Shown: in pieces, positions 16,329-32,000 of the stretch
Numbering within the stretch: the stretch's first letter is position 1
Layout of the letters: every line of letters starts with the position of its first letter
NCBI GenBank assembly: GCA_046497275.1
Contig: JAWOFX010000113.1
Coordinates: 1-32,000, forward strand
Length of the DNA stretch: 32,000 nucleotides
Direction: 5' to 3'
Origin: Promethearchaeia archaeon
Lineage (GTDB): Archaea; Asgardarchaeota; Lokiarchaeia; Sigyniarchaeales; SOKP01
Notes under the pieces: model-generated
Database searches by the model: none
What the model was told of the DNA's origin: nothing
Seen by the model: only the letters and a program-made list of their open reading frames with translations
Made by a program: the position numbers and the translations under genes

Positions 16329-17141
16329 ATGAAAGTAATTAAGTTAGCTGAACGAAAAAAGATCCATAAAGCTGCAGAATTATTGGTTAACTCTAAAGAA
16401 GCTATTGCTTTAACCGGTGCAGGAGTATCTACAGAGTCAGGTATCCCAGATTTTCGTGGAGAGGGAGGGATTTGGGAAAAATATAAGCCCGAAATCTATG
16501 GAAATATAAAAAGCTTTATTAAAGACCCGACTAAATTCTGGAAGATGGCAGAAAAAGTCGCTCCTAAGTTATTTTCAGCCGAACCAAATGCAGGTCATAT
16601 TGCATTAGCCGAATTAGAGGATATGGATCTCATTAAAGCAACTATAACACAAAATATAGACGAATTACATCAAAAGGCGGGTTCAGTTATAGTGTATGAA
16701 GTTCATGGAAATATTAATCGATTTACGTGCTTTGGTTGTAGAGCCAGCTATACTAAGGATCAAGTTATGAGAAAATTAAAGAAAGAAAAACATTATCCTC
16801 CTCAGTGTGATGTTTGTTCTGCACCTCTTAAGCCTTCAGTTGTATTATTCGGAGAAAGTTTACCCACATTCGAGATATATCAGTCTCAAGCTTTAGCAGA
16901 GAAAGCGGATGTAATGTTGATAGCAGGTTCCTCATTAACAGTAGATCCGGTGGCAGATCTTCCATTATACACGTTAGGGAACGGAGGAAAATTAATTATT
17001 GTAAATGATAAAAAAACCCATCTAGATGAACGAGCAGAAGTAGTGATTAATCATAAAACTGGGATGGTTTTACCTTTAATCGTTGAGGAAATAAAAAAGA
17101 TTAAAACGTCTGGAGAATTTGAAGATGTCTCCAAGGCATAA
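16329..17141 (+). CDS. cobB: NAD-dependent protein deacylase, Sir2 family
   Basis: ALTGAGVSTESGIPDFRG, ITQNIDELHQKAG, EVHGN, Zn ligands CFGC/CDVC, LKPSVVLFGE, GSSL. Confidence 0.95.
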   Translation: MKVIKLAERKKIHKAAELLVNSKEAIALTGAGVSTESGIPDFRGEGGIWEKYKPEIYGNIKSFIKDPTKFWKMAEKVAPKLFSAEPNAGHIALAELEDMDLIKATITQNIDELHQKAGSVIVYEVHGNINRFTCFGCRASYTKDQVMRKLKKEKHYPPQCDVCSAPLKPSVVLFGESLPTFEIYQSQALAEKADVMLIAGSSLTVDPVADLPLYTLGNGGKLIIVNDKKTHLDERAEVVINHKTGMVLPLIVEEIKKIKTSGEFEDVSKA

Positions 17142-22446: not shown

Positions 22447-22479
22447 AGAATGTTATTATGAATCCTTTAATAACATTCT
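22447..22479. promoter_or_regulatory. Perfect inverted repeat (12-bp arms, 9-nt spacer), candidate operator
   Basis: AGAATGTTATTA-tgaatcctt-TAATAACATTCT in the divergent GH2/histone intergenic region, 20 nt upstream of TTTAAATA. Confidence 0.6.
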
Positions 22480-22499
22480 ATGAGCAAAGAATCGTAGAG

Positions 22500-22507
22500 T
22501 TTAAATA
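22500..22507 (+). promoter_or_regulatory. Candidate TATA box for the histone gene
   Basis: TTTAAATA fits the archaeal TATA consensus about 80 nt upstream of the ATG; weak because the region is very AT-rich. Confidence 0.3.
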
Positions 22508-22572
22508 GGAGTAAAATAGATTGTATAATAATAAATTATAATTTAAACAAAAACTCAATTTAAAATAATAAT

Positions 22573-22578
22573 AGGAGG
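22573..22578 (+). promoter_or_regulatory. Shine-Dalgarno site of the histone gene
   Basis: AGGAGG 9 nt upstream of the ATG at 22588. Confidence 0.75.
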
Positions 22579-22587
22579 AATAATAAA

Positions 22588-22797
22588 ATGGCTAAGAAAA
22601 AAGCAGCTGCGGCTTCAACAGAAACTTTATTTGTTAAAAGTAAAGTAAGAGATTATATTAAGAGCAAAAATTGTAATACAAGCGGTGATGTAATAGATGG
22701 AGATGCTCTTAATAAGAGAATAATAGAGATTCTTGATAAAGCTGTAGAAAGAGCAAAAGCGAATGGTAGAAAGACAGTCCAAGAAAAAGATCTGTAA
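22588..22797 (+). CDS. Histone-fold protein, alpha3-truncated (Bd0055/face-to-face-like) type, with short Lys-rich N-terminal tail
   Basis: LFVKSKVRDYIKSK-NTSGDVI-ALNKRIIEILDKAVERAKANGRKTVQEKDL: histone-fold RKT(V)xxxD L2 motif, ending right after it; strong SD. Confidence 0.88.
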   Translation: MAKKKAAAASTETLFVKSKVRDYIKSKNCNTSGDVIDGDALNKRIIEILDKAVERAKANGRKTVQEKDL

Positions 22798-22823: not shown

Positions 22824-22832
22824 TTTTTTTTT
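22824..22832 (+). terminator. Oligo(dT) archaeal-type terminator candidate after the histone gene
   Basis: T9 run 26 nt after the stop, followed by further T-tracts. Confidence 0.4.
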
Positions 22833-23084
22833 CCCTATATTTTTCTTTTTTTAGAACAAGTAATTAAATTTAAAAAATCATCATAGTCTTCCTTTATATA
22901 AGCATCTCTATCTTTTTATTATTTAACACACACAATCTTAAATTAGAATAGAAAACAAATAAATAATCCCTGCAAATCGCCTTTACCCTAATAATTTTTT
23001 TGAACTAACAATTTTGGATTTCATATTTGTTTTTCTATTTCTCCCTTCTTTTTCTTAACTTTTTCGAAATCAAGAAATAGAGGC

Positions 23085-23606
23085 TTAATCGGAGATTTCT
23101 TGTCCTATATTTTTATCGATAATGAAGAAATCAATTGATAAAACACTTTTTAATCTTTCTAAATCTTGTTTTAAATCTCTTATTCTATTATAATCTCCGG
23201 AAACAGCTATAATTTCAATACATTTTTCGTATTCTATATGAACATGCATTGTTGAGACAATGACATCAGCAAAATGATGTTGGATATCATTATTTAAAAT
23301 TAAATCTGTCTGATGAATATTTGCATATATCGGTCTTGATTTAAAATCATGATCGTGTGTATCGGTATCGTTTTCATGAATGTGATCTTGTTCCTCTCCT
23401 ATATGTTCATGAGACATTATCATTGCTATACATCCAACAACATCACCTGCACTTTCGGGAAGATTCTCCTCTATAGCCATATATCTGTGCATTGCTTTTC
23501 GAACAGCATCAGATCTAGACACCTCCAATTTCTTTCGAAACTTCTCAAATTCTTGATAAAGAGTTTTGGGAAGGGAAACAGTAAAACGTTTGTATTCTTC
23601 ACTCAT
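23085..23606 (-). CDS. nikR: NikR-like nickel-responsive ribbon-helix-helix regulator with His-rich insertion
   Basis: RHH N-terminus KRFTVSLP...SRSDAVRKAM; metal-binding domain with IQHHF, STMHVHI and CIEIIAV matching the NikR His/His/His/Cys Ni site. Confidence 0.85.
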   Translation of the reverse strand: MSEEYKRFTVSLPKTLYQEFEKFRKKLEVSRSDAVRKAMHRYMAIEENLPESAGDVVGCIAMIMSHEHIGEEQDHIHENDTDTHDHDFKSRPIYANIHQTDLILNNDIQHHFADVIVSTMHVHIEYEKCIEIIAVSGDYNRIRDLKQDLERLKSVLSIDFFIIDKNIGQEISD

Positions 23607-28552: not shown

Positions 28553-29842
28553 TTGAAAAATATGAAAGTTTTGTATATTGATACTGAGAACTCAGGAATT
28601 TCTGGTGATCTTTTTTTAAGTGCTTTACTTGCCTTAATCAAGAATCAGAATAAGTTAATCGCAGAATTAGAAGAGCTGAAAAATTATTTACCAGGAGTGA
28701 AAAGACTTAATATCAAATTAATTAAAATAGAAGTCAGCGGTATCATCGTGAATAAATTGATAATTGAATTAGAGGAGAAAAAAAATCATAGAAGCGCCTT
28801 AGATCTTAAAAAAGCGTTGAAAAATTTTTTAGATGATAAAGAGTTTTCTGAAGCTGCTAAAAAGTACGCTAAAGATGTTTTAGATTCCTTAATTAAAGCT
28901 GAATCTTCGGTTCATAATAAATTAGAAGATAACATTCATCTTCATGAATTAAGTTCAGTTGATACATTAATTGACATTTTAGGAGTAACAAAAACTCTAG
29001 ACATTTTAGGCGCTTTTAGAGGTGATTTGAGTATTTATACTAGCAAACTTCCCTTAGGCGGGGGTAACATTGAAGCAGCTCATGGTACCTTACCAATACC
29101 CGCTCCTGCGACGAGTAAAATCATTGAGAATTCTAAACTTATTGTATATCTCGGTCCTATTGACGATGAATTAACCACACCTACAGGGGTGGCTCTTTTA
29201 GTAAATCTAAACCCAAAAATAAATAAAATTGAATTTAATCTCAAAAAAGTTGCATATAGTACTGGAGAAAAAGTATTCGATGAGTTTCCAAATATATTCC
29301 GCATTCTTTTTGGGAAAAAATACTTAGATTCTGAATTTGCTACACATCTTATTCAATACAGAGAAAAAGTTTCTGTTATTGAGACTAATGTTGATGATGT
29401 ATCGGGAGAAATAATTGGTGATTTCATTGAGCAAATGGAAAATAAGGTTTTAGATATTCAAGTGATTCATTGCTTAACTAAAAAAAATAGACCGAGTTAT
29501 ATTATTAAAATTTTATGTGATCCTGAAAATAAATTCAAGATCATTGAGGAAATTTTGGAGAATTTGGGAACATTAGGAGTAAGATATTACGACATTGACA
29601 GGATATGTGTTGATAGGGAAATTAAATCTCTAAATATTGAAATTGATAATACTATTTATTCTGTGAGATATAAGATTTCTTTTATAATAAAAGAAAATCA
29701 GAAGAAGATTATTAACATTAAACCCGAATATGAAGATCTTAAAAAATTAAGAGATATAACTAACTATTCCATTAAAAGACTAAAATCAATAATTCTTCCA
29801 AAATTAATGAATGATGTCTATAAAGATAATGATATAGGTTAA
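28553..29842 (+). CDS. larC: Nickel pincer cofactor biosynthesis protein LarC (nickel insertase)
   Basis: SGISGDLFLSAL, AESSVH...IHLHELSSVDTLIDILG, AHGTLPIPAPAT, ELTTPTGVALL, IETNVDDVSGE, KPEYEDL. Likely start is ATG 28562. Confidence 0.93.
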   Translation: MKNMKVLYIDTENSGISGDLFLSALLALIKNQNKLIAELEELKNYLPGVKRLNIKLIKIEVSGIIVNKLIIELEEKKNHRSALDLKKALKNFLDDKEFSEAAKKYAKDVLDSLIKAESSVHNKLEDNIHLHELSSVDTLIDILGVTKTLDILGAFRGDLSIYTSKLPLGGGNIEAAHGTLPIPAPATSKIIENSKLIVYLGPIDDELTTPTGVALLVNLNPKINKIEFNLKKVAYSTGEKVFDEFPNIFRILFGKKYLDSEFATHLIQYREKVSVIETNVDDVSGEIIGDFIEQMENKVLDIQVIHCLTKKNRPSYIIKILCDPENKFKIIEEILENLGTLGVRYYDIDRICVDREIKSLNIEIDNTIYSVRYKISFIIKENQKKIINIKPEYEDLKKLRDITNYSIKRLKSIILPKLMNDVYKDNDIG

Positions 29843-31686: not shown

Positions 31687-32000
31687 CTATTTATTTTTTA
31701 TTCTCCTTGAAATTAAAGCTGCTGAAACACCTGCTCCAAATCCATTATCAATATTTACTACTAATAACCCAGGACTACACGATTGCAGCATTGTATTTAA
31801 GGCACCTTCTCCTTTTCCCCCGACTCCATAACCACTGGAGACAGGAACTCCGATAATTGGAACATCTACTAATGCGGCCACTACACCCGGGAGTGTTCCT
31901 TCCATTCCAGCACAGACAATAATAACATCCACCCCACTCTCTATCATATCTATGAGTGGCTTGAAAATACGATGGATTCCAGCGATGCCAACATCATAAC
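31687..32000 (-). CDS. larB: Nickel pincer cofactor biosynthesis protein LarB (PurE-like); 5' partial
   Basis: Frame is open to the window end and reads [12 protein letters not shown]...[18 protein letters not shown]...PVSSGYG...MLQSCSPG...NIDNGFGAG, the LarB motifs. Confidence 0.92.

Follow-up and report, generated by a model that had tools for sequence, protein, structure and literature searches.

Among prokaryotic histones the face-to-face (FtF) class ranks second in size, and to our knowledge its biology in Asgard archaea has barely been studied. Within the alpha3-truncated histones, FtF tetramers are told apart from the Bd0055-like "bacterial dimers" by an arginine and an asparagine at HMM positions R48 and N52, which are absent in the dimers, and the bacterial-dimer group is exclusive to bacteria (Schwab et al., 2024; PMC11390915). 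[quoted passage not shown] In crystals of HLp and of the Thermococcus histone HTkC (PDB 9F2C) the interface arginine of one dimer is paired with the carboxylate at the C-terminus of the other (PMC12701072; PMC11390915; bioRxiv 10.64898/2025.12.06.692711), and the R45A substitution in HTkC turns the tetramer into a dimer (PMC11390915; bioRxiv 10.64898/2025.12.06.692711). HBb (Bd0055) of Bdellovibrio (PDB 8FVX, 8CMP, 9EZZ) is a DNA-bending dimer of a type found in bacteria only. A further short-alpha3 variant, HLoC, is known from Candidatus Lokiarchaeum ossiferum B35, an organism of the same order as the one studied here (bioRxiv 10.64898/2026.07.02.735847).

We analysed a histone gene in a Lokiarchaeial DNA stretch of 32,000 nucleotides, referred to in full as the window, which is AT-rich (27-35% GC). 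By every testable defining feature its product is an FtF histone, and a tetramer is predicted from conserved residues and homology. FtF histones of Asgard archaea are already in the literature, and the protein is an ordinary, expected member of this described family.

The gene product and its solved relatives

The gene and the parts of its predicted product, the latter taken from an AlphaFold2 monomer, are as follows.

22588-22797, + strand: coding sequence of a 69-aa FtF-type alpha3-truncated histone, ATG start, TAA stop
Residues 1-13: disordered N-terminal stub
Residues 17-26: helix alpha1
Residues 33-36: one helical turn within L1
Residues 37-39: break D37-G38-D39
Residues 40-58: helix alpha2
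Residues 61-63: R61-K62-T63 of L2
Residues 68-69: chain end D68-L69

This is a real, conserved gene and not a chance ORF, since a word-index search returned 364 homologs (best non-self match E 2.6e-28) and dN/dS in the FtF core, counted where dS is unsaturated, is 0.05-0.11; the histone is under strong purifying selection. An earlier note on this DNA had described a 69-aa histone frame that starts with MAKKK and ends right after RKTVQEKDL, all of which proved correct. There is no alternative in-frame ATG, GTG or TTG ahead of helix 1, so that the MAKKKAAAAS extension, as that note had it, is part of any product made. The AlphaFold2 model, built on 102 relatives (pLDDT 87), contains the helical segments listed above, with alpha2 running continuously for 19 residues in addition to the turn at 33-36, and contains no alpha3 helix. 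The chain stops five residues beyond T63 and carries the L2/RD clamp motif RxTxxxxD as R61-K-T63-V-Q-E-K-D68; its net charge is +6 and its pI 9.7.

General histone profiles recognize the protein weakly. Pfam PF00808 scored 20.2 bits against a cut-off of 21.4 and NCBIfam archaea_histone 23.6 bits against a cut-off of 50, both matches being confined to the C-terminal half (residues 39-69, of which PF00808 covers 40-69). These scores lie below the cut-offs and the AlphaFold2 model lacks alpha3; the protein is therefore an alpha3-truncated histone (Schwab et al., 2024; PMC11390915), and not one of the HMf or nucleosomal type. An alpha3 of 3-4 residues, an alpha2 shorter than that of nucleosomal histones and the RxTxxxxD motif define this superfamily, and the protein agrees with all three; its best Foldseek matches are short-alpha2 histones. 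A full-length PF00808 match above the gathering score and a 10-residue alpha3, which mark nucleosomal histones, are both missing, as is the Lys/Ser/Gly-rich L2 insertion (LPRKSKG..GELKR) that marks the ~76-aa chains of HLoC, the alignment showing none of this kind. A DUF1931 (PF09123) reading was rejected, with 17 bits against a cut-off of 21.8 over just 31 residues.

Within the superfamily, the equivalents of HMM R48 and N52 are both present as R55 and N59, and the FtF signature is complete with R61, T63 and D68, each of the five residues being at least 90% conserved among 102 diverse relatives. In phmmer alignments the signature maps to R49, N53, R55, T57 and D62 of HLp, and R55 corresponds to R45 of HTkC. 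The final residue aligns with F63 of HLp and residue 59 of HTkC, which would permit pairing of its carboxylate with the opposite-dimer arginine; the D-L terminus occurs in all 120 orthologs among those listed. Comparison with solved histones gave the following matches.

HLp (9QT0, Leptospira perolatii, FtF tetramer): phmmer E 6e-11; Foldseek TM 0.91, rmsd 1.3 A
HBb/Bd0055 (Bdellovibrio, bacterial dimer): phmmer E 1e-7; Foldseek TM 0.75
HTkC (9F2C, Thermococcus, archaeal FtF tetramer): phmmer E 1.2e-5; Foldseek TM 0.83
HPhA (HMf-type): phmmer E 0.17
Nucleosomal histones, including Asgard HHoB: Foldseek TM 0.5-0.6

HLp is the best match in both sequence and fold, and it shares with the lokiarchaeal histone the truncated alpha3, an identical chain end, the RD clamp, and a short, disordered, basic N-terminus, together with the R/N/R residues of the tetramer and the DNA contacts of alpha1 (S-K and K) and L1 (T/G). 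Dimer-core residues are all the same in kind (HLp/lokiarchaeal V16/V20, I20/I24, L35/L41, L39/I45, L42/I48 and L47/V53), and seven of nine DNA-contact positions of HLp are kept or conservatively replaced (S14/S18, K15/K19, K17/R21, K21/K25, T27/T31, G29/G33 and T57/T63). T56 of HLp is replaced by K62. Speaking against an HLp-like mode of action, K54 and R59, which matter in simulations of HLp and dominate its binding energy, correspond to the non-basic G60 and Q65. HLp also differs in being bacterial, in being two residues shorter between alpha1 and the tetramer arginine, and in being the sole histone of its genome, while the lokiarchaeal gene is one of seven. HTkC resembles the lokiarchaeal protein as an archaeal FtF histone that coexists with nucleosomal histones, and in the spacing from alpha1 serine to interface arginine and the chain end; it differs in having only 34% identity, no N-terminal stub, and a glutamate at the N59 position. 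The likeness to HBb is that of the alpha3-truncated superfamily, with the SKVK...NTS...GRKTV pattern and about 50% identity. HBb has serine and aspartate at the R55 and N59 positions and a C-terminus five residues longer.

The earlier note had called the histone "Bdellovibrio-like (alpha3-truncated)"; the superfamily stands, but the subtype does not, R55 and N59 being present and HLp being the best match. The choice of FtF over HBb is made on signature residues and scores, as about 55 alignable columns would lend little support to a tree of FtF, HBb and the Asgard clades.

N-terminal stub, L1 spacing and expression signals

The stub of 13 residues contains three lysines and has a net charge of about +2. 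Among 119 orthologs the segment ahead of alpha1 is 4-19 residues long (median 10) and rich in Ala and Lys; it holds 2-4 basic residues and, as a rule, a single acidic one, and MAKK is the start in 110 of the 119. Eight small ORFs of the genome have a MAKK start, and five of these encode histones, three of them nucleosomal and two FtF; a GGAGGAA Shine-Dalgarno (SD) sequence is common to four of the five. The occurrence of this start on three of five nucleosomal and both FtF histones therefore indicates that the stub is general to the organism's histone genes and not specific to the gene at 22588-22797. The "lysine tail" of the earlier note is thus a basic stub that exists but had been overstated, given its 13 residues and its presence on nucleosomal histones. 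Archaeal FtF histones are mostly tailless and tails are frequent in bacterial ones; FtF histones of other Asgard families are mostly tailless chains of 56-57 aa, a few of them with MAKKK stubs. HLoB of L. ossiferum carries modified Lys-rich N-terminal tails, seen in peptides spanning residues 2-27, and its tail is far longer than the FtF stub.

An insertion of about two residues at the start of alpha2 had also been proposed. Located in the D39-A40 region, it is real as an alignment gap against HLp and HBb, and against most other Asgard FtF histones, but not against HTkC, which aligns without a gap. The distance from the alpha1 serine to the interface arginine is 37 residues here and in HTkC versus 35 in HLp and other Asgard FtF histones. 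The apparent insertion consists of a conserved glycine followed by proline or aspartate that breaks the start of alpha2 (GP in 47 and GD in 56 of 120 orthologs). This Gly-(Pro/Asp) break at residues 38-39 lengthens the L1/alpha2 start relative to HLp, and it may alter the DNA path or the assembly.

Relatives of the fold also occur fused to other domains: an unknown N-terminal domain followed by two tandem FtF-like folds, TPR repeats, or an N-terminal Rab-like GTPase. The fusion proteins are P0122, P0124 and P0132 (245-288 aa), P0157 and P0217 (703 and 888 aa), and P0153 and P0176 (254 and 257 aa). The long-spacing form is found in the Lokiarchaeial Rab-GTPase-histone fusions, and all fusion relatives show the long (I/L)(D/E)Gxx(L/I) form of the L1/alpha2 start.

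The signals that flank the gene, and its convergent neighbour, are listed below.

22469-22484, + strand: conserved promoter element AATAACATTCTATGAG, the right arm of a palindrome at 22447-22479
22500-22507, + strand: TATA-box-like TTTAAATA; TTTAAATA or TTTAAAAA lies at about -85 from the ATG in 11/11 orthologs
22572-22578, + strand: SD sequence TAGGAGG, 7 nt, 9 nt ahead of the ATG
22824-22852, + strand: oligo-T tracts T9 (22824-22832), T5 and T7, likely an archaeal transcription terminator
23085-23606, - strand: NikR with RHH and NikR_C domains, a His-rich insertion, and intact H...HxH...C nickel ligands

The SD sequence pairs with the 3' end of the genome's own 16S rRNA (...GGATCACCTCCT), in which CCTCCT(A) is complementary to TAGGAGG, and the strong SD and T9 terminator reported earlier are both where they had been placed. 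GGAGGAAT is kept upstream of the ATG in all orthologs examined, and GGAGGAATAAAAAATG at the start codon is common to all orthologs. A full GGAGG precedes 2.6% of the ORFs of at least 150 aa in the genome and a single gene among 24 in the window, the histone. A run of at least eight T within 70 nt of the stop codon was found in 11/11 orthologous loci, or 12/12 with the window locus. The position of the TATA-like box predicts a 5' leader of about 55-60 nt, and a ATTAACATTCTATGAT match precedes the box by exactly 15-16 nt, both in the window and in 10 of the 11 orthologous loci. Long leaders and strong SDs set the histone genes apart, an SD being common to all histone genes of the genome. An SD is missing from 23 of the 24 larger genes in the window, and a TATA-like box lies some 25-30 nt ahead of the start in many of these; the SD-less genes are probably leaderless.

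These signals suggest that the FtF gene is probably highly expressed, and the indications of good expression given in the earlier note hold. FtF histones are abundant in Leptospira, Haloferax, T. kodakarensis and a Kariarchaeaceae Asgard archaeon.

All five nucleosomal histone genes of the genome have in common an upstream motif, TTTTGTCG, about 130-170 nt before the ATG (C8:16570, C51, C61, C59:54300 and C121:22580), where about 0.004 occurrences of an 8-mer are expected per 220-nt region, and a GTGGAGG SD, with GTGGAGGAA in four of them. Neither FtF gene has the TTTTGTCG motif. This suggests a separate, putative histone regulon for the nucleosomal genes, and the distinct motif indicates that the nucleosomal and FtF classes are probably regulated separately.

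Predicted assembly and competing readings

The reading that we consider likely, from sequence comparison, is that the protein forms an FtF torus tetramer with about 60 bp of DNA wrapped around it, and that it is an abundant architectural factor working alongside the nucleosomal histones, the second FtF paralog and Alba. Two chains would form the usual head-to-tail histone dimer, and two dimers would close into a torus, with R55 reaching across to the L69 carboxylate of the other dimer and N59 in contact with R61. With both interfaces occupied, growth into a hypernucleosome would be blocked. As in HLp and HTkC, from which this is extrapolated, about 60 bp of DNA would pass around the ring, with contacts expected through K17/S18/K19, R21 and K25 of alpha1, T31/G33 of L1, and K62/T63 of L2, and the disordered MAKKK stub could contribute a few non-specific positive charges. 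The gene has a dedicated promoter, from which it would be transcribed and which is unlike that of the nucleosomal histone genes. The earlier note held that such histones do not use the HMf-type C-terminal tetramer interface; FtF histones do engage the C-terminal alpha2/L2/alpha3 surface between dimers, but it is closed into a ring and not extended into a polymer.

A histone of the Bd0055/HBb type would instead remain dimeric and, without wrapping DNA, either bend it or coat it end-on. The protein clearly resembles HBb (50% identity across 58 columns of the Foldseek alignment, slightly above the 46% for HLp), and the lysine after the arginine of the GRKTV motif is as in HBb. We nevertheless regard this reading as unlikely. 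HBb has other residues in place of R55 and N59, which the lokiarchaeal protein shares with over 90% of its relatives, and the bacterial-dimer group is defined by the lack of this pair, clusters with HBb and is bacterial only, while the host here is an Asgard archaeon. HBb also runs past the chain end common to the lokiarchaeal protein, HLp and HTkC, and HLp outscores it in sequence (45 versus 35 bits) as well as in fold. A canonical HMf-like histone forming hypernucleosomes could appeal to the weak PF00808 and archaea_histone matches over residues 39-69 and to the RxTxxxxD motif common to both types; with both matches under the curated cut-offs, no alpha3 helix, nucleosomal histones as the weakest structural matches, and five separate true PF00808 histones in the genome, it is effectively refuted, in agreement with the earlier view of a protein that is not hypernucleosomal.

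A role outside bulk chromatin has also to be weighed: the protein could regulate a particular locus, exist only as a heteromer with the paralog or act together with other proteins, and NikR would control its expression through the palindrome. NikR is convergent and downstream of the FtF gene in 11/11 orthologous loci of the family while other neighbours vary, the conserved element keeps a fixed distance from the TATA box, the window contains a perfect palindrome with 12-bp arms (AGAATGTTATTA, a 9-nt spacer, and TAATAACATTCT), and the fold is known in fusions with Rab GTPase, TPR and unknown domains. However, dyad symmetry is kept in just 4/11 orthologs, the left arm being mostly not conserved, and no enrichment of ATTAACATTCTATGAT-type elements was found elsewhere in the genome, hence no regulon. 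NikR is adjacent in 0/20 FtF loci of other Asgard families, nor is it beside the FtF paralog, so that control by NikR stays a weak possibility. The DNA-contact and ring-interface residues are moreover those of general DNA-wrapping relatives, and a role outside bulk chromatin is in our judgement very unlikely. Other genes near NikR are LarC (28553-29842) and a LarB-like AIR carboxylase fragment (31687-31998).

Host chromatin genes and reciprocity with HLoC

The close homologs of the FtF histone (75-88% identity) all come from Lokiarchaeota/Promethearchaeota-type Asgard MAGs, and the window encodes the archaeal ribosomal proteins S15 and S3Ae. The host genome is Lokiarchaeial, 3.85 Mb in size and 98.9% complete. 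Its chromatin gene set comprises two FtF paralogs, five PF00808 nucleosomal histones and four Alba genes; tblastn found no HLoC in it. None of the five nucleosomal histones is long-tailed, since no stop-to-stop frame among them exceeds 79 aa. The second FtF paralog has 64 aa, is 66% identical to the first and also starts with MAKKK. It is placed as follows.

L002:410-688 (G000 C14:5740-6018): Alba gene
L002:1495-1689 (G000 C14:6825-7019), same strand: FtF paralog, 0.8 kb downstream of the Alba gene

FtF matches at E <=1e-5 were found in 163 of 301 sampled Asgard genomes, and in 61 of the 68 sampled genomes of the window's family, mostly in two copies. None was found in seven genomes of the sister family, one of which is a 4.4-Mb single-contig genome. 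With L. ossiferum HLoC.1 as the query, taken from the supplementary table of the preprint (bioRxiv 10.64898/2026.07.02.735847), HLoC was present in 14/14 sister-family genomes, one of which, a single contig of 6.0 Mb, matched at 100% identity. Within the window's family HLoC occurs only in genus g4 (4/4), where FtF was found in 0/4. The distributions of this FtF histone and of HLoC are thus cleanly reciprocal in these genomes, a modestly new point; since related genomes are not independent, the pattern may still reflect only one or two evolutionary events. The HLoC-like proteins of g4 (L043-L046) have 77-78 aa and are 45-47% identical to HLoC of L. ossiferum.

The alignable parts of HLoC and the FtF histone are alpha1 and the LDKA(I/V)E stretch of alpha2; R55 and N59 are missing from HLoC, and its L2 holds a 17-residue insertion rich in Lys, Ser and Gly. 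The idea that HLoC is the ortholog of the FtF gene by position was not supported, as neither NikR nor GH2 nor Alba genes neighbour the HLoC loci.

It is conceivable, though improbable, that the two FtF paralogs fill the roles of the long-tailed HLoB and of HLoC in Lokiarchaeial lineages that lack both, with the conserved mature AKK(K) N-terminus serving as a substrate of GNAT/Sir2 lysine modification. The mature AKK(K) is identical to the first residues of the modified HLoB.2 tail of L. ossiferum, and Asgard Sir2 enzymes deacetylate HLoB tail peptides (2026 preprint). If this were true, a non-nucleosomal histone that forms rings would carry a regulated tail. A Sir2-family deacetylase gene is located at 16329-17141 on the + strand, 5.4 kb upstream of the histone; at this distance it was set aside as evidence for tail modification.

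The protein is neither a Bdellovibrio-type nor a eukaryote-like histone, and its lineage-specific traits are minor. What it adds is that a whole Lokiarchaeial family has retained a pair of FtF genes under strong conservation, with a short basic stub and a lengthened L1, beside untailed nucleosomal histones, where cultured Lokiarchaea of the MK-D1 family have HLoC and a long-tailed HLoB instead. This reciprocal pattern offers a testable contrast for the diversification of chromatin composition near the root of the eukaryotes.
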